A stretch of 13,592 nt of DNA from a virus (Duplodnaviria > Heunggongvirae > Uroviricota > Caudoviricetes): IMG/VR virus record IMGVR_UViG_2778261231_000014, positions 1 through 13,592 of that record; one strand, written 5' to 3'. The translations under genes and the position numbers were made by a program. The first letter of the stretch is position 1; every line of letters starts with the position of its first letter. The notes beneath the pieces were generated by a model. The model did not search any database, had not been told where the DNA came from, and worked only from the letters and a program-made list of their open reading frames with translations. This document shows positions 1 to 13,592 of this stretch, in pieces.

Positions 1-291
1 ATGACGAAATGCGCTATCTTGCAATTTATCTGCGCTATCGAGCTTCGCTTCCAGTTCAGCGATTCGCTTCTCTGCGGTTTCCAACTCATCCAGCAGCGCC
101 AGCACGGTGGCGGGGTTGGCTGCGGCGATAAATGCAGCATCACGCGCTTCGTTTTCACTGAATACCATGGCTATTTGCTCATGGTTCACGCCGTCAGTGG
201 AGTAAATCTCATCGTCGAACTCAACAGCCCACCGGCCTTTCGTCGCCTTCTCCGCCGCTTCACGCAGAGCCTGGTAATTAATCTCGCTCAC
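1..291 (-). CDS. Ead/Ea22-like phage protein, partial (first 97 codons; 3' end runs off the window start)
   Basis: GTG start at 291-289 with AGGAGG about 6 nt upstream; 4-nt overlap with the stop of the upstream gene (288-290). Translation begins VSEINYQALREAAEKATKGRWAVEFDD..., which I recall as typical of the Ead/Ea22 family. The + strand ORF 1..492 is its antisense. Confidence 0.45.
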   Translation of the reverse strand, partial: MSEINYQALREAAEKATKGRWAVEFDDEIYSTDGVNHEQIAMVFSENEARDAAFIAAANPATVLALLDELETAEKRIAELEAKLDSADKLQDSAFRH

Positions 292-878
292 TGGTTGCCT
301 CCTTTGCGAAGCTGGGCGGCGATATCTTCGAGAACGCCATCAGAGAATGAGCGGTCAAAATCGCCTTCCGGCGCATTAGCCATAAACTCAGTAGAGGTAA
401 GAATCATCCTGGCAATATCCGCGGCGTTCTTTGCAGTATCATCAATAAAACCAGCTTCCCAGGCAGCCAGCATTCTGTTCGCCACAAAGTAAGCTCCCTC
501 CTTGCGTGCTTCAGTCTTCACTTCAGCCAGGAAAGCGTCGGTGGCTGGGGTTTTGTTATCTGACTCCAGCCACTGGTTGTAGTAATAATCGAACATGCCA
601 GTAGGATAACCACATCCGCTGTGCACGTGGTCTTTCATAGCAGAACCACACATGCAGTAGTCATTGTCAGTATTGCTAATGATGTCGATAAGTTGCTGTG
701 TCCGTTGCTTCAACATCGCATTCTCCGCAGCCAGCGCCGCGCATCTGGCTTTAAGCTCTGATAACGGGCCGGAAATCTTTTTGGTGGTCATGCCGATCAT
801 GGTGGCAATGCGAGCACTATTCAGGCCCGGGTTATTACGCAGGGCTGCAAGAATCTGCCCACGAATTGTTATGGTCAT
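288..878 (-). CDS. Hypothetical phage protein (196 aa) with a possible N-terminal winged-helix segment and a Cys/His cluster
   Basis: ATG at 878-876 preceded by AAGGGGG; ATGA start/stop overlap with the DnaC-like gene implies translational coupling. Contains CMCGSAMKDHVHSGC. Family not recognised with certainty. Confidence 0.6.
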   Translation of the reverse strand: MTITIRGQILAALRNNPGLNSARIATMIGMTTKKISGPLSELKARCAALAAENAMLKQRTQQLIDIISNTDNDYCMCGSAMKDHVHSGCGYPTGMFDYYYNQWLESDNKTPATDAFLAEVKTEARKEGAYFVANRMLAAWEAGFIDDTAKNAADIARMILTSTEFMANAPEGDFDRSFSDGVLEDIAAQLRKGGNQ

Positions 879-1729
879 GCTGCCCCCTTAGAACGGTAAG
901 AATCCCACGTGAATGACAGAGTGCACCCGCCGCCATCGCTCATGCGGTCAAGAACGCGCTCGCCGATGAATGCTGCCAGCTCTTCCCTTGTCTGGTTGCT
1001 GATCAGGATGGTCGGCTTCATCCGCTCGTACCGGGTGTTGATGATTTCGAACATGATCAGCTTCTCTGCTTCGCTGCCGAACTGGACGCCCACCTCATCG
1101 ATGATCAGCAGGTCCGGAGTGGTGAAGTGCGAAATCACGTCGTTCTCGCAGCGCGTCGCTGTTTTCGACCACGTTGATTTGAACTCACGGGCAATCTTCA
1201 GCGCCGTGGTGAAAATTACCGGGCTCTGGTGGTTCTCGATGACGTAGCGGGCGATCGCCAGGGCGAGGTGGTTTTTACCGGTTCCCGGCTTTCCGCACAT
1301 CACCAGCCCACCTCCCTGCTTCAGCCGCTCGGGCCACTTTGCGGCATAAGCCTGGCAAACACGCAGCGCGCGTTCTGACTCTTTGCCAACCGGCTGGTAG
1401 TTTTCCAGCGTGCACGTCACAAAGCGCTCGGGGATTTCGAGCTGGCGCAGCAGGCGGTCGATGTTCTGCTGGCGCGCGCGGTCTTCCCAGCGTTTTTTCT
1501 CTGCATACAGGAAGGTCAACTCATCGCGCAGGCAGCCCGGACAGCGAGTCGGCGGTGACGGTAGTTTTATCAGGCTGCTGGTAAGAACGCGTTTACGCTG
1601 TTCGTACTCGCCATGTTTCTCGCACAGCACTGTTTCGCAGACGGTCTCGCAGTTAGGGAGTTGCTCTGGAGGTCTACCAAGGACTTCCAGCATTTTTTCG
1701 ATAGCGTCGATTTTTTCGAGCAGTTCCAT
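875..1729 (-). CDS. DnaC-like replicative helicase loader (AAA+ ATPase, IstB/DnaC family; lambda P-position analog)
   Basis: Walker A GKPGTGKNHLALAIA and Walker B LLIIDEVG in the translation. Preferred start is ATG 1729-1727 with GAGGGA upstream, 2 nt after the O-like stop; the track ORF extends to 1747. Confidence 0.85.
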   Translation of the reverse strand: MELLEKIDAIEKMLEVLGRPPEQLPNCETVCETVLCEKHGEYEQRKRVLTSSLIKLPSPPTRCPGCLRDELTFLYAEKKRWEDRARQQNIDRLLRQLEIPERFVTCTLENYQPVGKESERALRVCQAYAAKWPERLKQGGGLVMCGKPGTGKNHLALAIARYVIENHQSPVIFTTALKIAREFKSTWSKTATRCENDVISHFTTPDLLIIDEVGVQFGSEAEKLIMFEIINTRYERMKPTILISNQTREELAAFIGERVLDRMSDGGGCTLSFTWDSYRSKGAA

Positions 1730-1731
1730 AC

Positions 1732-2601
1732 TCAGTCCCTCGCCCATGATGGGATTTCAGTCTGGCCGTAGTCTTTGCCAGCGAAGTTCTCGGATACGCG
1801 AGACTGATTGCGGGTAGGCTGCTTGGCGCCCTTAGGCTCAAACAATCCCTGCCAGCCGTTAGCGATGCTCTGGTTTATAATTTCTTCAGGCTGATATCCG
1901 CTGCACTTGCAACGCTCGAGCAGGTTGATGGCCTGGGTAACCGTCTGCTGAGACTTGATCGGTTTCTTCAGGTCGCGACGATAATCGACCCATGACTTCC
2001 AGACTGAAACTGACAGCCATTCAGGAAGGTCAACACCAGCCGGATCGAACGAAGCATGTTTGGGGGATTTAGGGGGTTTATTAATATTGTCTTTATTGTC
2101 TTTTGTAATAGTGTCTTTTGTGTGTCCCCATTTTGGTGACAGGGTTGTCACTGTTTTGGTGACACTTTTTGTCACCACCGTAGGGACACTGTCACTACCA
2201 TGGTGACAGTCACTACTATGGTGACATTTTGGCGCAGGCTTAGTGCCCGGAATTACCCACTCACTCAGGTTTTTGTTGGGCCCGATCAGCATGCCGTCGG
2301 ACACCAAAACATTCATCGCAATGAGTTCGTTTTTGGCAGCGTTAACCTTCTGGCGAGGTAGCCTGGTCAGCTCAGAAAGTTGTGAGTCTGCTATGCGGTC
2401 CATCTTCTTGTTGAACCCATAGGTTTTGCGGCAAACAGCATGAGCTACCTTGGCCTGATTTTTGGTCAGGTTCGCGCCGATAAGCTCCTCATACAACTCG
2501 TTTGCCAGACGGGTGTACCCATCGTCTGTATCGGCCACGCGTTGCTCCTGTATTCCCGAAACTACAGCGGGAAAGTTGAGAATTTCTGCGGTGTTTGACA
2601 T
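1732..2601 (-). CDS. Replication initiator protein, lambda O-like N-terminal domain
   Basis: N-terminus MSNTAEILNF...ADTDDGYTRLAN...LTKNQAKV...RKTYGFNKKMDRIADSQLSELTRLP...GPNKNLSEW closely follows the lambda O N-terminal domain as I remember it. ATG 2601-2599 with GGGAG RBS; the track ORF starts at an upstream in-frame GTG at 2628. Iterons lie inside the central linker. Confidence 0.85.
   Translation of the reverse strand: MSNTAEILNFPAVVSGIQEQRVADTDDGYTRLANELYEELIGANLTKNQAKVAHAVCRKTYGFNKKMDRIADSQLSELTRLPRQKVNAAKNELIAMNVLVSDGMLIGPNKNLSEWVIPGTKPAPKCHHSSDCHHGSDSVPTVVTKSVTKTVTTLSPKWGHTKDTITKDNKDNINKPPKSPKHASFDPAGVDLPEWLSVSVWKSWVDYRRDLKKPIKSQQTVTQAINLLERCKCSGYQPEEIINQSIANGWQGLFEPKGAKQPTRNQSRVSENFAGKDYGQTEIPSWARD
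2075..2230. repeat. ori-like element inside the O-like gene: four to five roughly 22-bp iterons plus an adjacent AT-rich tract
   Basis: Repeated units TTTTGGTGACAGGGTTGTCACTG / TTTTGGTGACACTTTTTGTCACC / ...GGGACACTGTCACTA / CCATGGTGACAGTCACTACT / ATGGTGACATTTT at 2131-2230; AT-rich tract with repeated ATTGTCTTT at about 2075-2130. Same layout as lambda ori inside O. Confidence 0.6.
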
Positions 2602-2604
2602 ACT
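2576..2604 (+). promoter_or_regulatory. Putative promoter for a short + strand (antisense) transcript: TTGAGA-17-CATACT
   Basis: -35-like TTGAGA at 2576-2581 and -10-like CATACT at 2599-2604 with 17-bp spacer. Weak match; proposed mainly because a strong + strand terminator lies about 70 nt downstream. Confidence 0.25.
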
Positions 2605-2640
2605 TACTCCCGTTACTTGCCGTAACACAGTGTGATAAGG

Positions 2641-2676
2641 GCCTTTGAAGTTACCGCTTCAAGGGCTTTTTCTTTT
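2641..2676 (+). terminator. Rho-independent terminator on the + strand, in the gap between the O-like and YdaT-like genes
   Basis: 10-bp stem GCCTTTGAAG / CTTCAAGGGC (one G-U pair), 6-nt loop, then TTTTTCTTTT. The U-tract is 3' only on the + strand, opposite to the local genes. Confidence 0.6.
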
Positions 2677-2686
2677 CTTGTGCCTC

Positions 2687-3229
2687 TCATATAACCCCCA
2701 ACATTGACGTGACCATCGTCATCAGCGGCCCTACCTGCTCCGGCATGAGGCGGAACAGCGACGCTATACCCTCGCTTACCTCTTTCAGCTTCTGATGCTC
2801 TGGAGCGCCCAGAAGCACTGCCTGCTTAGCTTCGGCACACTCTTTCATCGCGGATGCGATCAGCGACATCGTGTCGTTCTGTGGTGCAAGGCGGTTGCGA
2901 AATTCCAGTGGAAGTACCGCCATGATTGCGGGCGTCAGCTGGCGCACGTTCTCGCGGTACTGCTCAGAGTCGAAACGGTTATCCAGAAAGCGAAAAAGTT
3001 TCTGGCGCGCCCTGCTGATGTCTTCCGGGAAGCTGATGGCGGTACCGCCCTGCTCCCGGTATTCGTTGATGATCAGTGCCGAAACGACGTCCTGATTGTC
3101 CAGCGCCGAAGACCATGCCCGGACCGCATCGCGGATCTTTTCGTGGTCTGGCGCCGCCTTAGGTTGAGCGCGGTTTATCATCGCTCCCGGGTGTATTCCG
3201 GTATTGTGTTGATACGCAAGTGAATGCAT
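2687..3229 (-). CDS. YdaT-like regulatory protein (CII-position analog of Rac-type prophages)
   Basis: Sits immediately downstream of the cro-like gene. Motifs EYREQGG and LTPAIMAVLPLEFRNRL resemble Rac YdaT as I recall it. Start could be ATG 3229 or internal ATG 3181. Confidence 0.6.
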   Translation of the reverse strand: MHSLAYQHNTGIHPGAMINRAQPKAAPDHEKIRDAVRAWSSALDNQDVVSALIINEYREQGGTAISFPEDISRARQKLFRFLDNRFDSEQYRENVRQLTPAIMAVLPLEFRNRLAPQNDTMSLIASAMKECAEAKQAVLLGAPEHQKLKEVSEGIASLFRLMPEQVGPLMTMVTSMLGVI

Positions 3230-3258
3230 TGCTTTCCCTTTCGTGGTTAGGGCCGCCG

Positions 3259-3480
3259 TTAGGCGGCAAAGATACCTGGATATAGAACTTCGCGAGGAAG
3301 CCCCGTCACTTCTTCGTACTTACGCATTTTTGTTACTGGAAGGCTGCCACCTCGCTTTTTAAGCATATTGATGGCCTGTGGCGTTACGCCGACCTTTTCA
3401 GCAAGCACCTTTTGAGAGCCGCCCACTGCATTAATGGCTTTCTCAAGCGGGGTGCTTGCGTTGGATTCTTTGTTGATCAT
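3259..3480 (-). CDS. Cro/YdaS-like small HTH regulator (73 aa)
   Basis: HTH-like segment QKVLAEKVGVTPQAINMLKK; GGAG RBS 7 nt upstream of ATG 3480; divergent from the repressor gene across an operator region. Confidence 0.7.
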   Translation of the reverse strand: MINKESNASTPLEKAINAVGGSQKVLAEKVGVTPQAINMLKKRGGSLPVTKMRKYEEVTGLPREVLYPGIFAA

Positions 3481-3597
3481 GTTTTGCTCCGCTCATGTGT
3501 AATCAACACCATGTTAATTCATGATGTGGATTAAATCAACATTATGGTGATGGAAAAAATCCACATGTTGTTTACCATGCATGGAGCGGAGGGTTTT
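3481..3597. promoter_or_regulatory. Immunity operator/promoter region (OR-like) between the divergent cro-like and cI-like genes
   Basis: Four copies of AATC(A/C)ACA or its complement at 3501-3508, 3525-3532 (TGTGGATT), 3534-3541, 3558-3565. 3525-3541 forms an imperfect 17-bp palindrome TGTGGATTAAATCAACA. A leftward TTGATT-17-TAACAT promoter candidate lies on the - strand. Confidence 0.6.
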
Positions 3598-4308
3598 ATG
3601 AGTAGCATTTCTGAAAGAATTAAATTTTTACTGGCAAGGGAAGGCTTGAAGCAGCGGGATTTGGCTGAGGCTTTGTCGACTAGCCCACAGACCGTCAACA
3701 ACTGGATAAAAAGAGACGCGTTAAGTCGTGAGGCGGCGCAACAAATATCTGAAAAATTCGGTTATTCTCTTGACTGGTTATTAAATGGAGAGGGTTCTCC
3801 AAAGAAGGATCTGGAGAGCAACATCCCGCCAGAGTCTGAGTGGGGAGTTGTTGATGCATGGGATAAAGACACCCCGCTTCCTGTTGATGAGGTTGAAGTG
3901 CCATTTCTTAAGGATATTGAATTTGCGTGTGGTGATGGTCGAGTTCAGTGCGAAGACCACAATGGATTTAAGCTGAGATTCTCCAAGGCAACGCTCAGAA
4001 GAGTGGGTGCAAATAGTGATGGTTCTGGAGTGCTTTGCTTTCCCGCTTCTGGTGACAGCATGGAGCCCGTTATTCCTGACGGCGCAACGGTAGCAGTCGA
4101 TACAGGCAACAAGCGGATTATTGACGGCGAACTCTATGCTATTAACCAGGGCGATTTAAAGCGCATAAAGCAGCTTTATCGAAAGCCTGGTGGGAAGCTA
4201 TTAATACGAAGCATCAATCGCGATTATGACGATGAAGAGGCTGATGAGGCAGATGTCGAGATAATCGGTTTTGTGTTCTGGTACTCGGTATTGCGATATC
4301 GCCGATAA
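3598..4308 (+). CDS. CI-like phage repressor (N-terminal XRE-type HTH plus C-terminal S24/LexA-like peptidase)
   Basis: HTH RIKFLLAREGLKQRDLAEALSTSPQTVNNWIK; S24 signature GDSMEP and a downstream Lys (LKRIK). Start ATG 3598 with GGAGGG RBS; in-frame ATGs from 3544 exist but overlap the operators. Confidence 0.85.
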   Translation: MSSISERIKFLLAREGLKQRDLAEALSTSPQTVNNWIKRDALSREAAQQISEKFGYSLDWLLNGEGSPKKDLESNIPPESEWGVVDAWDKDTPLPVDEVEVPFLKDIEFACGDGRVQCEDHNGFKLRFSKATLRRVGANSDGSGVLCFPASGDSMEPVIPDGATVAVDTGNKRIIDGELYAINQGDLKRIKQLYRKPGGKLLIRSINRDYDDEEADEADVEIIGFVFWYSVLRYRR

Positions 4309-4314
4309 TTTTAG

Positions 4315-4425
4315 TGGCCTGAAGAGACGTTTGGGTGATAAGAGAATATCTGATAGTAGGCGTGGTTACTTTGCTCTCGGTTGTTGCGATCGTGCTTATG
4401 GTGGCCTGATGAGACGTTTGGGTGA
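4315..4425. repeat. Two copies of a 25-bp direct repeat GTGGCCTGA(A/T)GAGACGTTTGGGTGAT, 86 bp apart, between the cI-like and KilA-N genes
   Basis: Copy 1 at 4315-4339, copy 2 at 4401-4425, one mismatch. Read directly from the sequence. Confidence 0.7.
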
Positions 4426-4457
4426 TTATTTTATTTTTCACAGCAATAGGATGATTT

Positions 4458-5219
4458 ATGACACAGTTTCAACTTGCATTAATCGCCAGAGAAGTTGATG
4501 GAGAAGTCATCCATCTTCGCACCAAAGACGGTTACATCAATGCCACCGCAATGTGCAAGTCTGCTGGGAAGCTACTTGCTGACTATACACGACTAAAAAC
4601 AACGCAAGATTTTTTTGATGAATTATCCCGCGATATGGGGATTCCCATATCGGAATTAATTCAATCATTTAAAGGCGGAAGAGCAGAGAATCAAGGGACT
4701 TGGGTTCATCCAGACATCGCAATTAACTTAGCTCAGTGGCTATCTCCAAAATTTGCAGTGCAAGTATCGAGATGGGTGCGTGAGTGGATGTCAGGCGAAA
4801 GAGCGCCTGCCGAACTCCCTATCCACCTTAAGCGGTATATGACAAACCGAGGCAGGGTTCCTCATACGCACTTTTCTATGCTTAATGAACTGACGTTTAA
4901 CCTGGTTGCGCCACTTGAGCAGGCAGGATATACGCTGCCAGAAAAAATGGTCCCTGATATTTCAGAAGGTAGGGTTTTCTCGCAATGGCTTCGTGAAAAC
5001 CGGGGTGTTGAGCCGAAGACGTTCCCAACATATAACCATGAGTACCCAGATGGCCGGACATTCCCGGTACGTCTATACCCAAACGAATATCTTGCAGATT
5101 TCAAACAACACTTCAACGAAGTGTGGCTGCCTCAGTACGCTCCTAAATATTTTGCAGAACGAGACCAAAGGGCATTGACGTTGATTGAGAAAATCATGTT
5201 GCCTGACCTTGATTCCTAA
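4458..5219 (+). CDS. KilA-N domain protein (253 aa) with an unassigned C-terminal domain
   Basis: N-terminal approximately 100 aa (INATAMCKSAGKLLADYTRLKTTQDFF...VHPDIAINLAQWLSPKFAVQVSRWV) fit the KilA-N/APSES-like fold. AGGA RBS; lower GC than the flanks. Confidence 0.65.
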   Translation: MTQFQLALIAREVDGEVIHLRTKDGYINATAMCKSAGKLLADYTRLKTTQDFFDELSRDMGIPISELIQSFKGGRAENQGTWVHPDIAINLAQWLSPKFAVQVSRWVREWMSGERAPAELPIHLKRYMTNRGRVPHTHFSMLNELTFNLVAPLEQAGYTLPEKMVPDISEGRVFSQWLRENRGVEPKTFPTYNHEYPDGRTFPVRLYPNEYLADFKQHFNEVWLPQYAPKYFAERDQRALTLIEKIMLPDLDS

Positions 5220-5227
5220 ATGTTATA

Positions 5228-5250
5228 CCCGGCCACCAAGCCGGGGTTTT
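5228..5250 (+). terminator. Putative intrinsic terminator after the KilA-N gene
   Basis: Stem CCCGGC / GCCGGG, loop CACCAA, followed by GTTTT. Sits between the convergent KilA-N and 65-aa genes. Confidence 0.4.
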
Positions 5251-5446
5251 ACTGCCCTTTCCGCACTATCTCAGCTGCATCCCTGTTCACACCCTTACCT
5301 ATCACGTTTCCCGTTTCCTTCCGGTACCGTTCCAGCTTGTCGATGATGTTTTGCTGGGTCATAGGTAAATCTGCCAGTGACAACTCCATGACCGCCCGCC
5401 CCATGGCGTGAACCATCATGTTCACTCTTTCTTCATCCAAGCCCAT
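5249..5446 (-). CDS. Small hypothetical protein (65 aa), divergent from the early-left promoter
   Basis: AAGGAG RBS 8 nt upstream of ATG 5446-5444; possible extended -10 TGATATGCT on the - strand upstream. No family recognised with confidence. Confidence 0.55.
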   Translation of the reverse strand: MGLDEERVNMMVHAMGRAVMELSLADLPMTQQNIIDKLERYRKETGNVIGKGVNRDAAEIVRKGQ

Positions 5447-5501
5447 TACCCACTCCTTTTTGATGTTTTTTTCAGCATATCACTTATGCCACCAAAAAAT
5501 A

Positions 5502-5576
5502 AATCAACATAAAAATCAACAAGAAACGATTAAATCAACAAAATAAATCCACAAGGTGTTGACCTATAAATCCACA
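5502..5576. promoter_or_regulatory. Second operator-like cluster (OL-like): five direct copies of AATC(A/C)ACA
   Basis: AATCAACA at 5502, 5514, 5533; AATCCACA at 5546, 5569. Same motif family as the cI/cro intergenic region; the last copy lies between the -35 and -10 of the rightward promoter. Confidence 0.55.
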
Positions 5577-5587
5577 TGATGTTTAAT
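5559..5587 (+). promoter_or_regulatory. Putative early-left (pL-like) sigma70 promoter: TTGACC-17-TTTAAT
   Basis: TTGACC at 5559-5564, TTTAAT at 5582-5587, 17-bp spacer containing AAATCCACATGATG. Points toward the recombination-gene operon. Confidence 0.45.
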
Positions 5588-5633
5588 TATCCCATCGAAA
5601 CGAAACATCGACAGCTGAGCGAAGTTAGCCAGC

Positions 5634-5664
5634 GGCGGACAGCAAGTCGCCTGCTTTTTAACAA
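5634..5664 (+). promoter_or_regulatory. nut-like site in the leader: bulged hairpin followed by a boxA-like TGCTTTTTAACAA (alternatively a leader intrinsic terminator)
   Basis: Hairpin GGCG(G)AC-AGCAA-GTCGCC at 5634-5651, then TGCTTTTTAACAA at 5652-5664, which is one mismatch from the rrn boxA core TGCTCTTTAACAA as I recall it. Confidence 0.35.
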
Positions 5665-6003
5665 CATGCAGATTTACAGCGTCAATGACCTGTTAAGACC
5701 CCTACACGTAAACGTGCTGTATCACCGGGTGCGATCCGGTCGGTGAGAGAGTATCCCCGCGCGAGAGCGAGAACGGCGTGAGAACGGGCAACACTGGCAG
5801 GGAGTTGGCGCTGACCAATACAGGGAATGTTATGGGATGTGGTGAAGGGTTCATGGACGGGAATATGTCGCACGTAAAGCGGCGAGGCCCGAGGAGCTAT
5901 TGCCGAAGATAAGTAGGCCGAATCGGGTCGAAATGGGTCTCCCACCTACCACATCGCCAAAGCATTTCTCCCGCATCAGCGGGTAACGACAGAGGGTAAG
6001 GGG

Positions 6004-6300
6004 ATGATCGACGACATCAAGCGCATCGACTCAATGATAAATGCGCTTCGCAATATGAAACAGGACATCAAGCGTCAGCAGAAACTAAGTGAAATAAACA
6101 GTTTAGACCTGTCGCCGAAGCAAGCTCAAAAGCGCAATGCCGATGCTGACTGGATTGCGATGGAACAGATTAAGCGTCGGCATGAGCTGCACGCTCTGTC
6201 TGTTGAGCTTGGGTTCGCTGAGCGCCGGGAAAGTTATGCTCCATTTGAATTAACTGACGGGTGGCACCGATTCGACCACAAGCCGCGCGAACCTCAATAG
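6004..6300 (+). CDS. Hypothetical early protein (98 aa), first gene of the rightward early operon
   Basis: RBS AGGGTAAGGGG before ATG 6004; followed immediately by an intrinsic terminator. No family recognised. Confidence 0.55.
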   Translation: MIDDIKRIDSMINALRNMKQDIKRQQKLSEINSLDLSPKQAQKRNADADWIAMEQIKRRHELHALSVELGFAERRESYAPFELTDGWHRFDHKPREPQ

Positions 6301-6321
6301 CCGCCTAACCAGCGGCTTTTT
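6299..6321 (+). terminator. Rho-independent terminator after the first early gene
   Basis: Stem AGCCGC / GCGGCT, 7-nt loop, then TTTTT; overlaps the TAG stop at 6298-6300. Confidence 0.6.
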
Positions 6322-6456
6322 CATACCTGGAGTCATTTACGAGTGGCTCAAGTTATGACAACCGGCGGCCATCCACCGCCCATTGAAACACTGAATAAAT
6401 GCGTTGAAGTCTTGTATTAACCGTTCCGTTCGCCGCGATAAGGCCAAGAGGAAATC

Positions 6457-6663
6457 ATGGTAAACCAGCACTACGGTACACAGACAGTAAACCGCGGCGC
6501 AGTTCAGCCGGGGATGCTCGTCAAACACAAGGATTCAACCTGGACGGCATCAGCTAATGCTCGTGGTCGTTTGTATCTGCATCGCGGCGTTGAGATGACT
6601 TACACCAGGGATTTGCTGGTTGAAGTTTATCTGAACGGTCTGGGGAATGGCCTCAGCCATTAA
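6457..6663 (+). CDS. Hypothetical small protein (68 aa)
   Basis: AAGAGG RBS 5 nt upstream of ATG 6457; same orientation as the operon. The overlapping - strand ORF 6337..6528 starts with GTG and has no RBS. Confidence 0.5.
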   Translation: MVNQHYGTQTVNRGAVQPGMLVKHKDSTWTASANARGRLYLHRGVEMTYTRDLLVEVYLNGLGNGLSH

Positions 6664-6696
6664 CGGAGAGTTGCCAAAACACTTTAAGGACAGGTG

Positions 6697-6855
6697 ATGA
6701 AAAAAGAATGTGGTTATTGCCACAAGCCTGTTGAAGAAGGCGCAGAAGTAAAGAGCACCTTGCTCTATCTCAACGGTTCGCAACTGGCACAGAAAGAAAA
6801 AGAATATTGCTCTAAGCAATGCGCTGAATACGACCAGATGGCGCACGAAAGTTAA
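6697..6855 (+). CDS. Small Cys4 protein (52 aa), putative zinc-ribbon; absent from the ORF track because it is under 60 aa
   Basis: Translation MKKECGYCHKPVEEGAEVKSTLLYLNGSQLAQKEKEYCSKQCAEYDQMAHES has CxxC...CxxxC. By position it matches the small zinc-binding gene of Rac-type prophages (ydaE position). Confidence 0.45.
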   Translation: MKKECGYCHKPVEEGAEVKSTLLYLNGSQLAQKEKEYCSKQCAEYDQMAHES

Positions 6856-6940
6856 ATAGCAGTCCTGAAATATGAAATGAAAAATTCGCCATTAATTTGG
6901 CGCGGCTTCTTACACCCTTAATTTAACAACTGGAGATTTT

Positions 6941-7228
6941 ATGGAAATCGTAAAAATCGAAATGAACCTGAAAGCAGTGAATAAAGAAGTGGCTGCATTC
7001 AACTGCGAGAAGAAAGTATCAGGCGTTATTCACTCAACTACAAACGGTGAAACAACAGTCATTCTCGACGGTGGCTATGTGCTTGGCAAGTTTGATTGCC
7101 CGCACTGCGCCATTGAGGAGATCAGCTTGCTGGTACTCAAAATCAGCGATAGCGATTACGCCGGCTGGGGAACCTACCGTACATACAAGCAAGATTTTAT
7201 GAATGAGGCGATCGTAGCCGTCAGTTAA
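6941..7228 (+). CDS. Hypothetical protein (95 aa) immediately upstream of the recE-like gene (racC position)
   Basis: GGAG RBS 5 nt upstream of ATG 6941; a hairpin GCCCAC-CGAA-GTGGGC without a U-tract follows at 7235-7250. Confidence 0.55.
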   Translation: MEIVKIEMNLKAVNKEVAAFNCEKKVSGVIHSTTNGETTVILDGGYVLGKFDCPHCAIEEISLLVLKISDSDYAGWGTYRTYKQDFMNEAIVAVS

Positions 7229-7368
7229 GCGAAAGCCCACCGAAGTGGGCCCGCCATGTCCGGCCTCACCGACCAAAGTTACACCGGAAACAACATTAAA
7301 ACCAAAGTTAACCCAATGGGCGCTATCAATGGTCCGGGGATTCTAACACCCAAAAATGAGGATCTCAC

Positions 7369-10300
7369 ATGGAATTCTTTAATGTGGTTAAAGCCACTCA
7401 GAAATCCGGAAAGCAAGATGCAGTGGTCTGGTTCACTGCTAAAACCGAGGCTCGCGCCAATCTGATGCTGGATGTTGCGCTGGAAGATGCAGGTATCGAA
7501 ACAGGTCGGGGTAAGGACTACGCCAAACCGATTCGCACTGATTTCCCAGTTGTCGACGGCCTGCCGAAAGAAGGTGAAGTTGATTTTACCTGGTGTGATC
7601 GCTACGAGCTTCAGGACGATGGGCGCACCTGGCTGCCAAAAGCCGCTGGTGTGTCTACTGGTTCCGTTGACGCCCCCTACACACCTACTCCGACCGTAAT
7701 CGTTGAAGATGCGACTGCGTCCGAAATTGTCCCGGTTGAAAACCGTACTCCAGCGGTCCGCTTTGCCGTCCATCTGATGAACGATAAATACCAAACCCAC
7801 GTCACTAAAGAGCAGCAGTTGGCTGCCAGCGAAATGTCACTGGATGAAGGCAATACATATCTCCATAGCCTGCTTGTGGCAAGGAACGATGTGCCCGCGA
7901 CCGCCAAACTCAGCCTGAATGCTGAGTGGAAAATGATTCGGGCGGTTAAGGACATTTTCACACCCGACGAAGAGCACGAACCAAGATTGATCGCTGCATT
8001 CATGTCTGACTGGGTGAACACCGATGCCGGTGACCGCAATCAACTGGTAGAAGACTGGCGCAGTGGTAAGTTGCAGTTGCTCAAAACTGAAACCAGCAAC
8101 GCTGCTGACGTTACAACGGGTCAAGATCTCACTGTTGAGGACGGTATCCAGACCGACGAGAACGGCCGGGCAGAAGGTGGCGTCGTTGATGGTGAAGTCG
8201 ATACCGAAGAGCAATCCCAGCAGACACAGCAACCGAACCTGATCGTTGTTGCCACCCTGCCATTCCGCCAGCGCGTACTGGCTCAGTTCATCGGTGATGG
8301 TGAATATCTCTATCACATCGACGCAGGGCAGAAAAATGAGATTGTCCGCCTTGAGATGGACACCGATGACGCGTACGTCCAGAACCTGCTGCTGGCAGCT
8401 GAGAATGTGGAAGCATTCAAAAAAGCCATTGAGCACGATATTCATAAAGTCGTGAATGCCGTTAAGAAAGTCTTCCCTGTCGATGGAAAAATCCCTGAAC
8501 TCGCAACCTTAATCCAGTTTTTGAAATTGTGGTTCGCTACAGATCACATCGACCGCGGTATCCTCGTTCGCGAATGGGCCGCCGGTAATCGCATCAGTAG
8601 TGTGCAGCGTACTGATTCCGGCACTAATGCCGACGGCGGTTACGTCACTGACCGTGGACCTGACGCACACCACACACTGGACACTCTCGATTTAGAGATT
8701 GCGTGTGCCCTTCTGCCTATGGACTTCAACCACTTCGAGATCCCGGGCAGCATTCTTCGTCGCGCTAAAGAAATCGTGACCAAAAAAGAAGAACCATGGA
8801 AATCATGGAGCAACATCCTGCGCAATCAGCCAGGCGTTCTGGGTGTTAACCGCACGGCTATTTTTAACCTGGTACGTATCGCACCGGAAAATATTCATTT
8901 AACTCCTGTCGCTCACCTGGAATTTGTTAACCAGACCATGACAGCCGCGTTCAATTCCGCGGTCGAGTTATTGCCGTTGCATGAGGCTGAACCCGCAGCA
9001 CAGGAAATTCCCCAACCTGAAGGTAAGGAGTCTCCGCGCAAATCCTTCTGCACTCACGAAGAGAACCTGCAACGCGTGCGTGAAGAAGGAGCACGCCGCC
9101 GCGCAGAGGAAGCGGCAGCACAACCGCAGAAAGTCGAACAAGAACTGGTTAAAAATGTCGGCAACGGAATATTCGACGTTACGGCTTTGCTGCAGAACTC
9201 AGCAACTCATGGCACGAAAAAGGCTACGGAGACCACCAGCAATGTGCAGGTTCAAGAAACTGTCAGTGATGAAAAACAAGCTGGTGATGAAGTACAGCCA
9301 GGCGAAAGCAGTCTGGAGTCTGGTGAAGAGTCAGATACCAGCCAGAAGGACGATGTAAACCAGAATACGGATTCTGTCGCCAAAAATAGCGATTCTGTAA
9401 GCCAAACCGAACCAGTTGCAGCACAAACCGAGCCAGAAGCGCAATCTGACGAACCGGCTGTTGTTTATCCCGCTTATTTCGAGCCAGGCCGCTATGAAGG
9501 GCTGCCAAACGAGGTTTACCACGCCGCCAACGGCATCAGCTCAACCCAGGTGAAAGATGCGCGCGTTTCGCTGATGTACTTCAATGCGCGCCACGTAGAG
9601 AAAACCATCGTCAAAGAGCGCTCAGCGGTGCTGGACATGGGCAACTTGGTGCATGCGCTGGCGTTGCAGCCTGAACTACTGGACGCAGAATTCAGCGTTG
9701 AACCGGTGATCCCTGAAGGCGCATTCACAACGGCCGCGACCCTGCGCGCCTTTATCGATGAGCACAATGCCAGCCTGCCGGCGCTGCTGTCTGCCGACGA
9801 CATCAAGGTGTTACTGGAAGAGTACAACGCCACCCTGCCGCCGCAGGTTCCGCTTGGCGCTAACCTGGAAGAAACGGCACAGAACTATATGGCGCTGCCA
9901 GCTGACTTCCAGCGTATTGATGGTGACCAGAAGCAGACGGCGACGGCAATGAAGGCATGCATTAAAGAGTACAACGCCACCCTGCCGCCGCCGGTTAAAA
10001 CCAGCGGCAGCCGTGACGCGCTGCTGGAGCAGTTGGCAATCATCAACCCTGACCTTGTGGCTCAGGAAGCACAGAAACCGGCACCACTGAAAGTGTCCGG
10101 TACCAAAGCAGACATGATCCAGGCCGTGAAGGCAGTCAAACCAGATGCCGTATTTGCCGACGAACTGCTGGATGCCTGGCGCGATAACCCGGAAGGAAAA
10201 GTGCTGGTCACCCGCCAGCAGCTGAGCACCGCGCTGAATATTCAAAAAGCGCTTCTGGCACACCCGACCGCCGGCATGCTGCTGACCCACCCTAGCCGAG

Positions 10301-10758
10301 CCGTTGAGGTGAGCTACTTTGGTTTTGACGAGGAGACGGGCTTGGAAGTTCGTGTGCGCCCTGACCTTGAGATCGACCTGGATGGCGTGCGTATAGGTGC
10401 AGACCTGAAAACCATCAGCATGTGGAATGTTAAGCAGGAAAGCCTGCGCGCCAGGCTACACCGGGAAATTATTGAACGTGATTATCACCTGAGCGCGGCT
10501 ATGTACTGCGAAACCGCAGCGCTGGATCAGTTCTTCTGGATTTTCGTCAACAAAGACGAGAACTACCACTGGATCGCCATCATCGAGGCATCCGCTGAAC
10601 TACTGGAGCTGGGTATGCTCGAGTACCGCAAAGCGATGCGCAATATCGCAACCGGATTCGACACAGGTGAATGGCCAGCGCCAATCACTGCTGACTACAC
10701 CGACGAACTGAACGACTTCGACCTGCGCCGCCTTGAAGCGCTGCGTACTCAGGCATAA
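7369..10758 (+). CDS. recE: RecE-like exonuclease VIII (1129 aa): long N-terminal region, acidic linker, C-terminal PD-(D/E)XK nuclease domain
   Basis: Single long ORF with GAGGA RBS. C-terminal RVRPDLEIDLDGVRIGADLKT fits a PD...(D/E)xK signature; N-terminal DFPVVDGLPKEGEVDFTW resembles what I recall of RecE. Directly followed by an annealing-protein gene. Confidence 0.7.
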   Translation: MEFFNVVKATQKSGKQDAVVWFTAKTEARANLMLDVALEDAGIETGRGKDYAKPIRTDFPVVDGLPKEGEVDFTWCDRYELQDDGRTWLPKAAGVSTGSVDAPYTPTPTVIVEDATASEIVPVENRTPAVRFAVHLMNDKYQTHVTKEQQLAASEMSLDEGNTYLHSLLVARNDVPATAKLSLNAEWKMIRAVKDIFTPDEEHEPRLIAAFMSDWVNTDAGDRNQLVEDWRSGKLQLLKTETSNAADVTTGQDLTVEDGIQTDENGRAEGGVVDGEVDTEEQSQQTQQPNLIVVATLPFRQRVLAQFIGDGEYLYHIDAGQKNEIVRLEMDTDDAYVQNLLLAAENVEAFKKAIEHDIHKVVNAVKKVFPVDGKIPELATLIQFLKLWFATDHIDRGILVREWAAGNRISSVQRTDSGTNADGGYVTDRGPDAHHTLDTLDLEIACALLPMDFNHFEIPGSILRRAKEIVTKKEEPWKSWSNILRNQPGVLGVNRTAIFNLVRIAPENIHLTPVAHLEFVNQTMTAAFNSAVELLPLHEAEPAAQEIPQPEGKESPRKSFCTHEENLQRVREEGARRRAEEAAAQPQKVEQELVKNVGNGIFDVTALLQNSATHGTKKATETTSNVQVQETVSDEKQAGDEVQPGESSLESGEESDTSQKDDVNQNTDSVAKNSDSVSQTEPVAAQTEPEAQSDEPAVVYPAYFEPGRYEGLPNEVYHAANGISSTQVKDARVSLMYFNARHVEKTIVKERSAVLDMGNLVHALALQPELLDAEFSVEPVIPEGAFTTAATLRAFIDEHNASLPALLSADDIKVLLEEYNATLPPQVPLGANLEETAQNYMALPADFQRIDGDQKQTATAMKACIKEYNATLPPPVKTSGSRDALLEQLAIINPDLVAQEAQKPAPLKVSGTKADMIQAVKAVKPDAVFADELLDAWRDNPEGKVLVTRQQLSTALNIQKALLAHPTAGMLLTHPSRAVEVSYFGFDEETGLEVRVRPDLEIDLDGVRIGADLKTISMWNVKQESLRARLHREIIERDYHLSAAMYCETAALDQFFWIFVNKDENYHWIAIIEASAELLELGMLEYRKAMRNIATGFDTGEWPAPITADYTDELNDFDLRRLEALRTQA

Positions 10759-10763
10759 GGGGA

Positions 10764-11882
10764 ATGATGATGGAAAACACGAATATCGTAACCGCTGAAC
10801 AGCAGACTCCAAACACGATCTCAGCCAGCAATGCCATTTTCAACGTGCAGGCTTTAACCCAGCTTCAGTCTGTCGCCGGGTTGATGGCACAGGCAGCCGT
10901 AACGGTGCCTGAGCACCTCCGCGGCAATCCGGCAGACTGCATGGCCATCATCATGCAGGCGATGCAGTGGGGTATGAACCCTTACGCCGTGGCGCAAAAG
11001 ACGCACCTGGTTAACGGTGTCCTGGGATACGAAGCGCAACTGGTTAATGCGGTGATCTCCAGCTCAAACGCCATCGTTGGCCGCTTTCACTATGAGTACG
11101 AGGGCGACTGGTCGAAATGTGCCAGCAGCCGCGAGATAACCGTTAAAAAGCCTGCGAAAGGTGGCGGGACGTACGACAAGAAAGAAATGGTACGCGGTTG
11201 GGAAAGTGCTGATGAACAAGGACTGTCGGTACGGGTAGGTGCCGTTATTCGCGGTGAAAGTGATATCACCTGGGGAGAGCCTGTTTTCCTCTCCAGCGTA
11301 ATCACACGTAATTCTCCACTTTGGGTATCAAACCCGAAACAGCAGATCGCTTATCTGGCACTCAAATACTGGGCGCGCCTGTATTGCCCTGCAGTTGTTC
11401 TTGGTGTGTACACCCCTGATGAGATTGAACAGCGCACAGAAAAAGAGATCAACCCAACGCCGCAACGCGTTAGCCTGGCTGATATCTCAGGTGACACCGT
11501 CACAACCACGCAAAGCGCACAGGAATCGTCGGTAAATGTCGACTCTCTTGCCGATGATTTCCGCGAACGCATCGAATCTGCTCAGGACGTGGATAGCGCC
11601 AAATCGCTGCGTGCCGACATTGAAACGGCGAAAGCTACGCTGGGATCCGCACTATTCACCGAGCTGAAAAACAAAGCCGTAAAGCGTTATTACCTAGTGG
11701 ATGCACGCAACAAGGTTGAGGAGGCTATTAAATCCCTGCCCCAGCCCGACGAGCCGCATGCAGCCGAACGGTTCGCTGAAGCCGAGCGCATGCTTGCATC
11801 TTCAAAGCGTCACTTAGGCGATGAACTGCACGATCAATTCAGCATCACCCTGGCGGATATGAAACCGGAATACGTGGCCTGA
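10764..11882 (+). CDS. Single-strand annealing protein, Bet/RecT (Red-beta) superfamily
   Basis: ADCMAIIMQAMQWGMNPYAVAQKTHLV and SPLWVSNPKQQIAYLALKYWARLYCPAVVLGVYTPDE align by eye with lambda Bet. The true start may be the third ATG at 10770, which has better spacing from AAGGGG. Confidence 0.65.
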   Translation: MMMENTNIVTAEQQTPNTISASNAIFNVQALTQLQSVAGLMAQAAVTVPEHLRGNPADCMAIIMQAMQWGMNPYAVAQKTHLVNGVLGYEAQLVNAVISSSNAIVGRFHYEYEGDWSKCASSREITVKKPAKGGGTYDKKEMVRGWESADEQGLSVRVGAVIRGESDITWGEPVFLSSVITRNSPLWVSNPKQQIAYLALKYWARLYCPAVVLGVYTPDEIEQRTEKEINPTPQRVSLADISGDTVTTTQSAQESSVNVDSLADDFRERIESAQDVDSAKSLRADIETAKATLGSALFTELKNKAVKRYYLVDARNKVEEAIKSLPQPDEPHAAERFAEAERMLASSKRHLGDELHDQFSITLADMKPEYVA

Positions 11883-11920
11883 CGAGACCGGGAGGGGTAA
11901 CCCTCCCTCAAGGAGATTAT

Positions 11921-12163
11921 ATGCGACTGATCAATCGAGGAAGTAAGCAATCACCTTTAGCTCGCCAAGCATGCGACATCGCGCTGGCAGCTCACTTGCA
12001 AACATATGGCGACTATGGGCGAAGCAAGATGAAAGAGACTTATACGGTGAAGGTTGAAGGCATGAAAGTCTGGGTGGAGGTGGTGAACCGAAAGGCGAGC
12101 TACGTGGCCACAGCGATGACCGGCATGCGCCGTCTCCGCTCCCTGCCCGGGCAGGTTGGTTGA
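11921..12163 (+). CDS. Hypothetical protein (80 aa)
   Basis: AAGGAG RBS 6 nt upstream of ATG 11921; sits where Rac/lambda carry a restriction-alleviation gene, but no sequence support for that function. Confidence 0.45.
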   Translation: MRLINRGSKQSPLARQACDIALAAHLQTYGDYGRSKMKETYTVKVEGMKVWVEVVNRKASYVATAMTGMRRLRSLPGQVG

Positions 12164-12204
12164 AAAAGATTTTGAATGGCCCGAACGGGCAACTGGAGAG
12201 AGCT

Positions 12205-12402
12205 ATGGATGATATTTTGGTAACGTCAGACCTGACCAGTCGCTACAAAATTTCACGCAAAACCCTTTGGTCATGGCAAAGTGCAGACACAATGCCTCGG
12301 GGCTTCGTATGCCCGTTCCCACCCCCTGACTGGCCCGGCAACCCTAACCGCTGGCGCTCTGAGTCAATCAAAGAGTGGGAGGATAAAAAGAAGATAAATT
12401 AA
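12205..12402 (+). CDS. AlpA/Xis-like small DNA-binding protein (excisionase or integrase regulator family)
   Basis: [34 protein letters not shown]...[12 protein letters not shown] fits the AlpA/phage-excisionase HTH pattern. ATG 12205 with GGAGAG RBS; the track ORF starts at an upstream TTG at 12160. Confidence 0.55.
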
Positions 12403-13592
12403 CTGAAGGGCTCTCCGATGATCTCTTCAAGATGGCTCTGCCAAACGCGGAGCCAGTGTTTCTGATCATCGATATAGTCATGAAGGTTGTAATGCGCCAT
12501 AACCCCCACCATCTGATGCCCGAGCAGCTTTTCAATTACGTGCGGCGGGCAACCTAACTCAGAGAGATTTGTGGCTATCGTCCGCCTCATATCATGAAGC
12601 GACCACTCTGCCATACCTGTTCCATTCCAAATAGAACGGGCGTAATTGGATGCCACAGGTGAATGAACGGGCGAATCTTTGATCCCGCCATCAATTTTAC
12701 GTTGTGAAGTCACCAGGTGATTGGTGTTTATTTTCTTGAGGTGATTTCTGACCAGGTTAACGGCGGCGTCTGAGAGTCCCCTTCTAATATGTACCCGAGT
12801 TTTATAACTGCCCGCAGGCACGACCCACTCATTATCATCCAATCGAAACCATGATCTCTCACTAAGTCGAATCTCAGCCGTACGGCATCCGGTAAGCATA
12901 ATAAATTTCACCAGGAAAACGGACTCTATCGACATATGGCTTTTCAACCACTGATAGATTTTGCGCAGATCGTCATCGTCCATCCTGCGAGTTCTCTTTT
13001 TAGGCTTTTGCCCGACATCAGATGGCAGTAATCCCTCGAGTGGGTTTGAGGCGATCACACTTCTGTTAACGCAGAACCTAAACGCCCGTTTGCACAGCGA
13101 AAGCATGTAATGAGCCATCACCCTGCTTTCTATAGAATCGAAGACGTTGATCCAGTGCATTTTCGCTGTGTTATCGACTTTGACATTCTTCATCGGTTCG
13201 GCGATATGTTTCTCAAACACCTGGCGATAGTAATCGACTTTAACTAGCCCGTTAGCGATACAGTGCCTTTCAATCCAGTAATTGAACGCTTCGGCAACGG
13301 ACATCGCTTCCTGTCGGGTCTGCTTATCCAGCTTCACCTGCTCTCGCGGATCCAGTCCCTCAGTTAACCAGTTTCTGAATTGTTGGCGACGCTCTCTTGC
13401 CTGGGTGATACTCATTGCAGGATAATCACCAACATTGAGTTTTACCGCTTTACCGGCCCAGCGATACCGATAGAAAAATGATATTTTTCCGGCCTGGCTG
13501 ATTCTGGCGTTGAGCCCGTGCGAATCAGAAATAATCTCGATATCATCTCTTTTCTTGCCGAGCGCCTTCCTGAGCTTTGTGTCGGTGATCAT
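12399..13592 (-). CDS. int: Tyrosine site-specific recombinase (phage integrase, P4-like family)
   Basis: 397-aa ORF with catalytic-region motifs LTGCRTAEI (Arg), HDMRRT (His-x-x-Arg) and LLGHQ...AHYN (His/Tyr); N-terminal arm-binding-like domain. The ATG coincides with the window end. Confidence 0.9.

Follow-up and report, generated by a model that had tools for sequence, protein, structure and literature searches.

We analyzed a 13,592-nt stretch of DNA from a virus of the class Caudoviricetes (IMG/VR record IMGVR_UViG_2778261231_000014, positions 1 to 13,592; hereafter the window) and examined a perfect 26-bp direct repeat within its recE gene, which encodes a RecE-family 5'-3' exonuclease. 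The joint explanation that we favor, and consider likely, is that the repeat is the DNA footprint of conserved copies of a short helix-end motif in an old insertion in RecE, and that these copies are homogenized and recombine with one another. The repeat is real and recombining: natural alleles carry zero (Escherichia coli 730V1), one (the window) or two (E. coli CUWW10) copies of the 49-codon unit that it bounds.

The 26-mer AAGAGTACAACGCCACCCTGCCGCCG was present on the plus strand of the window as two exact copies, at 9818-9843 and 9965-9990, and no further site was found within the window at up to 3 mismatches. Two 26-mer matches occurred in 0 of 200 dinucleotide-preserving shuffles. A repeat search extended the similarity of the two copies, designated c2 and c3, to 32 nt with 31/32 identity, and there was a third, degenerate copy upstream, c1, giving spacings of 60 and 147 nt between successive copies. 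All three were in frame in the 1129-amino-acid (aa) open reading frame (ORF), where they encode DEHNASLPALL (c1), EEYNATLPPQV (c2) and KEYNATLPPPV (c3). An earlier, sequence-only reading of this DNA had reported an identical, in-frame 26-mer pair 147 bp (49 codons) apart, encoding (E/K)EYNATLPP twice with a degenerate DEHNASLPALL upstream, and its coordinates and sequence proved correct. That reading had also described tandem protein modules of about 49 aa, which we did not find. Tandem Repeats Finder reported no array in recE. Successive 147-nt registers were 30% identical in DNA over the 115 nt that lie beyond the 32-nt core, which is near random, and beyond the 11-residue motif successive 49-aa registers matched at 1 of 38 residues. 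The window contains a single 49-aa unit with a short motif at its flanks, without tandem 49-aa modules.

The gene that carries the repeat lies directly upstream of a recT ORF. Its DNA was 95.4% identical to recE of HK225, and over the C-terminal two thirds it was 99.4% identical to the mEp237 exonuclease gene; the corresponding genes of Gifsy-1/2, SPN3UB, FSL SP-016 and Klebsiella prophages were ~80% identical over the nuclease region, with ~82% for Gifsy-1. Pfam Exonuc_VIII (PF06630) matched at aa 4-102 (E=1.5e-32, 113.6 bits versus a cut-off of 25), and DUF3799, a PD-(D/E)XK family, scored 39.3 bits versus a cut-off of 26. The sole sequence match in the PDB was 3H4R, the nuclease domain of Rac RecE (E=0.0023). 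The same entry was the top Foldseek match for an AlphaFold2 (AF2) model of aa 700-1129 (E=1e-5, probability 1.0), and the catalytic residues of the two proteins paired, GNLVH with TAFH, RVRPD with RCRPD, and ADLK with MDVK. The level of a Rac equivalog was not reached (NCBIfam PRK09709, 514.9 bits versus a cut-off of 1269). Judged from these matches, the window protein is a RecE-family member of a lambdoid prophage and not a Rac equivalog; processive 5'-3' exonuclease activity on double-stranded DNA (dsDNA) and a toroidal tetramer are predicted from its family membership.

The repeats had been placed by the sequence-only reading between an acidic linker and the nuclease domain, but they sit within the nuclease domain, and the alignments to DUF3799 and to 3H4R are both split there. 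Approximately 176 residues of the protein lie between DUF3799 positions 53 and 75, where the profile has 22 positions, and 3H4R aligned as two pieces, one on each side of the insertion. In this alignment the H of GNLVHAL stood opposite H51 of the 3H4R chain, which is His652, an active-site residue of Rac RecE (Bell/Tolun review, PMC11611040). Equating chain residue 51 with His652 gives a numbering offset of 601, and this offset places the insertion between Rac residues ~688 and 693. These fall within residues 665-698 of Rac RecE, long disordered loops that extend from the rim around the central channel of the toroid and are described as DNA-binding (PMC11611040 section 2.3). That the insertion maps into this rim loop is read directly from the alignment; a functional meaning may be suggested from the position, and we take this up below.

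When the insertion was modeled alone (aa 785-946), AF2 returned eight helices with a mean predicted local distance difference test score (pLDDT) of 87.8. The insertion helices were again confident (pLDDT ~87-95) in the model of aa 700-1129, which was used only for secondary structure and the top PDB match, its predicted template modeling score (pTM) being 0.58 and its pLDDT ~30 at aa 700-749, the N-terminus of the core. Three of the predicted helices end in E-[YH]-N-A-[ST]-L-P, the residues encoded by c1, c2 and c3, and a K-x-S-G-x-[KR] element precedes each of two later helices, d1 and d2. Structure prediction of the repeat region, which had been suggested as a check, thus gave ordered helices with the motif copies at their C-termini. 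In distant representatives, conservation within the insertion was highest at c3-d1 (T-x-x-x-M-K-A-C-I-K-E-Y-N-A-T-L-P-x-x-x-K-T-S-G-S-R-D-x-L-L).

Judging from its distribution among relatives, the module is old, and so is its +20/+49-aa motif spacing. Eight phage and prophage genes from Escherichia, Salmonella, Klebsiella and a recorded Actinobacillus phage aligned without indels through the region. The standard (20,49)-aa spacing and the standard anchor distance were both found in 57 of 74 loci, mostly from GTDB species representatives, and the layout extended from E. coli to Serratia, Proteus and the recorded Actinobacillus phage. A HMMER search with the insertion against 1.84 billion representative proteins returned 84 clusters. 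Nearly all of the clusters inspected were RecE-like; most 50%-identity representatives had the same motif spacing, which was mostly kept down to ~35-50% identity. Because the layout is conserved across Enterobacterales and beyond, the repeat did not originate in a recent duplication. The sequence-only reading had taken the DNA identity as the mark of a recent tandem duplication of the ~49-aa module, and the perfect 26-nt identity, the spacing of exactly 49 codons and the fact that such events do occur (in CUWW10, below) would all fit. However, only 32 nt are alike in the window, the same layout with diverged flanks is found across Enterobacterales and beyond, and the nearest relatives already have a 23-24-nt match between c2 and c3. 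A truly recent case also looks different, with the two units of CUWW10 identical at 147 of 147 positions. We regard a recent duplication as extremely unlikely.

Two of the wider occurrences call for caution about the host. The C-terminal region of recE in the Actinobacillus phage vB_Apl-pPE4 (L007, PP818812.1) is 97-98% identical in protein to several E. coli proteins (P0121-P0127), and recE and recT stand at the same coordinates as in a Rac-like prophage of E. coli (L157, E. coli A30, NZ_CP028745.1; recE-recT-ralR-xisR-intR); the host may have been wrongly assigned, or the gene may have crossed between genera very recently. A Serratia-like recE with the insertion, 57% identical to the window, was present in contigs of Sphingomonas sp. 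NPDC019816 (L069) and Streptomyces sp. NPDC002677 (L070), where contamination is likely.

We asked what keeps c2 and c3 alike. In 63 unique alleles, chosen without bias, the two copies were compared within each genome, and the null came from pairing c2 with the c3 of a different genome. An exact in-register match of at least 26 nt was present in 14.3% of within-genome comparisons versus 1.4% of between-genome comparisons (permutation p ~5e-5). Mean identity over 30 nt was 23.5 within genomes and 21.9 between them, with p ~5e-5 also after stratification by GC content at third codon positions. The c1-c2 pair, which served as a control, showed no within-genome excess (p=0.5). Ten homogenized haplotypes could be distinguished, some of them with rare codons common to both copies (L036, L037, L053). 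Variants carried by both copies included ACT-CTG-CCT-GCA in Citrobacter youngae, a rare His together with CCA in Siccibacter, and CTT-CCA-CCT in Klebsiella sp. BIGb0407; in L037, the rare residue His in c3 was common to both copies of the one genome. Since the nucleotide sequence differs between lineages yet is alike within each genome, we rejected the idea that the 26-mer acts as a signal in DNA or RNA.

Could a conserved peptide and codon bias produce the DNA identity alone, without homogenization? The sequence-only reading had raised this possibility, and constraint does contribute: the motif is written mostly in preferred codons (GAG TAC AAC GCC ACC CTG CCG), 13% of between-genome pairs had at least 20 identical nt, and the window 26-mer is a single base away from a shorter match in its relatives. 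As the whole answer, however, constraint falls short, and we consider it improbable. The probability of eight identical codons under recE codon usage was P=0.0004, although the codon set of the motif is especially biased, and matches of at least 26 nt were ~10 times commoner within than between genomes. Rare synonymous codons or residues shared by both copies of single genomes, together with the lack of an excess in the c1-c2 control, point the same way. The c2/c3 identity reads as the combined product of selection on the peptide, codon bias and recurrent short-tract homogenization, on permutation p-values that ignore phylogeny.

We then compared the copy number of the 147-bp unit among relatives. 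An allele at least 99% identical to that of the window was present in 34 of 5426 complete E. coli genomes. In E. coli 730V1 (GCF_014771275.1), exactly 147 bp had been deleted with the junction in the repeat, leaving one 26-mer; the RecE of this strain has 920 aa. E. coli CUWW10 (GCF_048012795.1) carried a perfect 147-bp tandem duplication (147/147 identity) with three 26-mers at 147-nt spacing; its recE was otherwise 2 nt from that of the window, and its 1178-aa protein was found on 2 contigs under two independent NCBI accessions. Junctions lay inside the repeat and the length difference was exactly one repeat period, as a repeat-mediated polymorphism demands. The same 49-aa deletion, of independent origin, was seen in a divergent allele from a metagenome contig (L143), with an intact 912-aa ORF followed by recT, and a protein identical to it is recorded from Citrobacter koseri (WP_200055788.1; 2 contigs, one from an isolate and one from a metagenome). 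An older duplication was represented by P0012, with two diverged 49-aa units. The supposition that the repeat could recombine is therefore borne out by alleles with exactly one unit deleted (730V1) or duplicated (CUWW10), and copy number is not invariant across relatives, as the C. koseri allele and P0012 also attest.

Smaller units varied as well. Additional units of 20 aa and of 31 aa were seen in alleles of Klebsiella, E. coli and Silvania, and in Klebsiella and Silvania alleles the d1 unit was doubled as a 31-aa (93-nt) tandem repeat. One Silvania confinis locus (L065, 1537-2020) contained four motif copies at +60, +60 and +147 nt along with a 93-nt tandem duplication of KTSGSRDALLEQL...KPAP at 82% identity. 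Besides the 49-aa unit, sub-unit duplications were also found in P0013, P0114, P0119 and P0120.

It is very unlikely, in our view, that the deletion and duplication alleles are artefacts of assembly or sequencing. The 730V1 deletion protein is known from one contig only, which would be compatible with an error. Against this, both E. coli rearrangements are exact, preserve the frame and have the repeat at their ends, the duplication protein has its two independent accessions, and the C. koseri deletion protein stands on 2 contigs. A 26-nt repeat would also be too short to mislead long-read or k-mer assemblers into a perfect 147-bp duplication.

We made further observations on individual loci. 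In the prophage of 730V1 (L008, 892-1243 and 1-310), a gene for a "DNA breaking-rejoining protein" upstream is annotated as frameshifted, and a putative nucleotide-modification gene of the Nmad5 family lies nearby. The 90% cluster that holds the 920-aa RecE of 730V1 is represented by a 34-aa Logan fragment, so such variants can be invisible in searches of representatives only. In E. coli NCTC_13148 (L009, NZ_OZ510750.1; 3001-3729), recE is 99.8% identical to that of the window and the similarity ends past the equivalent of window position 10107. The annotated recT there is a fragment without its N-terminus, so a deletion has joined the 3' part of recE to mid-recT; immediately upstream of recE, this prophage carries an HNH endonuclease gene. 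In E. coli EC2001 (L011, NZ_CP133811.1; 3502-5827), recE is truncated at the equivalent of window position 9861, inside the 147-bp unit. Its recT is also truncated and adjoins IS26 and ISNCY transposase genes, which looks like prophage decay mediated by insertion sequences.

Together these data allow us to infer a molecular pathway. The c2/c3 repeat would be the footprint of E-[YH]-N-A-[ST]-L-P, with the diverged c1 20 codons upstream, and the motif belongs to a ~155-aa module, predicted to be all-helical, in the PD-(D/E)XK domain of Gifsy-1/HK225-type RecE. Being identical and in frame at a distance of 147 bp, c2 and c3 would be substrates for misalignment, whether by replication slippage, by unequal exchange or by single-strand annealing (SSA) after a break. 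Deletion could proceed through slippage or SSA, the outcome of which is the loss of one repeat and the sequence between the repeats (PMC11611040 section 2), and duplication through slippage or unequal exchange. Either outcome would leave the reading frame intact, with the 49 intervening codons lost or doubled. Intragenic gene conversion or unequal exchange would homogenize c2 and c3, and cycles of duplication and deletion with differing crossover points would homogenize the motif too.

Several points weigh against this account of a homogenized, recombining repeat. The permutations treat alleles as independent, and shared ancestry makes their p-values optimistic. The 26-mer of the window is one base (ACG to CCG) away from the 23-24-nt match of its closest relatives, and one point mutation would account for the window allele as well as conversion would; in HK225 and SP-016 the exact c2/c3 match is 22 nt. 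Rearranged alleles are rare: of the near-identical E. coli alleles that are full-length, 2 of ~32 were rearranged, as was 1 of 24 loci from metagenomes, and a scan of IMG/VR for the 26-mer returned 42 loci, all of the standard architecture and with 0 copy-number variants. The alleles were read from assemblies, in the case of the 730V1 deletion protein from a single contig. Finally, the deletion alleles may be defective rather than tolerated, because the most conserved helix of the family (AMKACIK) is removed.

Another reading is that the repeat is a contingency locus, programmed for frequent switching between RecE isoforms. The rearrangements preserve the frame and could in principle be reversed, and 0-, 1- and 2-unit alleles exist. 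Yet variants are rare, the repeat is short and present only twice, and neither dedicated machinery nor a phenotype is evident. We find this explanation hardly credible.

We also considered what the module might do. Pfam searches with the insertion alone gave only sub-threshold matches, to SAP, DUF7668 and DnaG_DnaB_bind, and NCBIfam gave no match for the insertion. The SAP match at aa 907-920 had E=0.03 and 14.4-14.5 bits versus a gathering threshold of 23.9. SAP was the top family in 35 of 45 relatives (best E=0.0024), and FANC_SAP matched in 8, all below threshold. The MKL1 SAP domain aligned to d2 (E=0.63), and SAP domains superposed at 1.8-2.1 A over 35 residues, without any significant fold match. 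Our best guess from these similarities is that the module forms, at the entrance to the channel, a SAP-like arm for capturing dsDNA, its length set by unit copy number. We infer this DNA-handling role from the position of the insertion and the sub-threshold SAP matches, and it is the weakest part of our account; the net charge of -8 tells against it.

A serious rival is that the insertion is a protein-docking module, for RecT, the host SSB or another partner, or else a structural spacer, rather than a DNA-binding arm. The acidic net charge and the failure of any SAP match to reach threshold favor such a role, exonuclease-annealase pairs do interact physically (PMC11611040), and the module is confined to RecE-like proteins, with its 84 clusters. 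On balance we think docking or spacing somewhat unlikely, though well worth holding in mind. A broader proposal, speculative and in our judgment doubtful, is that an ordered, SAP-like helix "crown" replaces the disordered rim loops of Rac and acts as an accordion of 20-, 31- and 49-aa sub-units through gene-converted motif repeats; the RecET SSA machinery itself might catalyze these changes, tuning the engagement of DNA ends or partners.

One candidate similarity was set aside. A c3-d1-d2 profile run against PDB sequences matched the actin-binding WH2 repeats of N-WASP at 'SGRDALLDQI' (3m3n and 2vcp, E=1.3e-4), which is probably chance, there being no actin for a prophage nuclease to bind. The segment behind this match is window 9997-10053 (KTSGSRDALLEQL), a short amphipathic helix. 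The features of the region are collected in Table 1.

Table 1. Features of the recE region of the window, with the evidence for each.
Feature	Coordinates	Strand	Basis
recE, Gifsy-1/HK225-type RecE-family 5'-3' exonuclease, 1129 aa	7369..10758	+	ORF, identity, Pfam, 3H4R
PD-(D/E)XK N-terminal part, aa 724-788, with His652 equivalent	9538..9732	+	DUF3799 positions 1-53 = aa 724-778; 3H4R chain 5-87
All-helical insertion of ~155 aa, aa 789-944	9733..10200	+	DUF3799 gap, split 3H4R alignment, AF2
Motif copy c1, DEHNASLPALL, degenerate	9758..9789	+	75% identity to reference copy; C-terminal end of model helix aa 789-802
Motif copy c2, EEYNATLPPQV; exact 26-mer 9818-9843	9818..9849	+	C-terminal end of model helix aa 809-822
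147-bp (49-codon) unit lost or doubled in natural variants	9818..9964	+	730V1, CUWW10, L143, P0012
Motif copy c3, KEYNATLPPPV; exact 26-mer 9965-9990	9965..9996	+	C-terminal end of model helix aa 858-871
d1 element, KTSGSRDALLEQLAIINPD, aa 877-895	9997..10053	+	K, S, G, R, LL, Q invariant in alignment A4
d2 element, LKVSGTKADMIQAVKAVKPD, aa 907-926, SAP-like second helix	10087..10146	+	Sub-threshold SAP; MKL1 SAP alignment
PD-(D/E)XK C-terminal part, RPD...D-L-K catalytic motif	10201..10689	+	DUF3799 positions 75-222 = aa 955-1104; 3H4R chain 92-252
recT, annealase partner, 372-aa ORF	10764..11882	+	Syntenic gene annotated RecT in HK225, mEp237 and E. coli prophages

RecET is a workhorse of recombineering, and structural knowledge of it rests on the Rac enzyme, in which the rim loops are disordered; to our knowledge, the complex of Rac RecE with DNA has never been visualized. 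Many prophages of Escherichia, Salmonella, Klebsiella, Enterobacter, Citrobacter and related genera carry RecE of the Gifsy-1/HK225 type, in which an ordered module is predicted with confidence exactly where Rac is disordered. The alleles of 730V1, the window and CUWW10, with 0, 1 and 2 units, are a ready-made allelic series for the role of the rim. The locus would also be a compact natural case of concerted evolution and repeat-mediated in-frame length variation in a recombination gene, and 147-bp length differences are likely to arise from the repeat when the gene is cloned, amplified or assembled.

The gene and the mutational process are already known. In the papers covered by a literature search, neither the insertion nor its repeats were described, and the ordered rim insertion, its concerted evolution and the copy-number polymorphism of the unit appear to be undescribed. 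Like RecE of Rac (exonuclease VIII; 3H4R), the window protein has an N-terminal Exonuc_VIII domain and a C-terminal PD-(D/E)XK domain with the conserved His and D...D-x-K, and its gene is followed by recT. The Rac protein has 866 aa versus 1129 aa in the window, and where the Rac rim loop 665-698 is disordered the window protein has ~155 residues that are modeled as ordered and helical. The RecE proteins of Gifsy-1/Gifsy-2, HK225 and mEp237 are the same gene with the same insertion and three-motif layout, but their exact c2/c3 matches are shorter than that of the window. SAP and helix-extended-helix domains (PF02037; FAN1 SAP, PF18081) may resemble the c3-d1 and d2 elements in having two short amphipathic helices and an extended linker with G-x-K/R, and FAN1 also combines a SAP domain with a PD-(D/E)XK nuclease. 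The window module differs in scoring below the curated cut-offs, in its longer linker and in being acidic overall, and DNA binding by it is putative. Finally, as in misalignment between short direct repeats, through RecA-independent slippage or SSA, a repeat and its spacer are lost or doubled with junctions inside the repeat. The difference is that the substrate here lies inside the gene of the SSA exonuclease itself and is apparently kept alike by concerted evolution.

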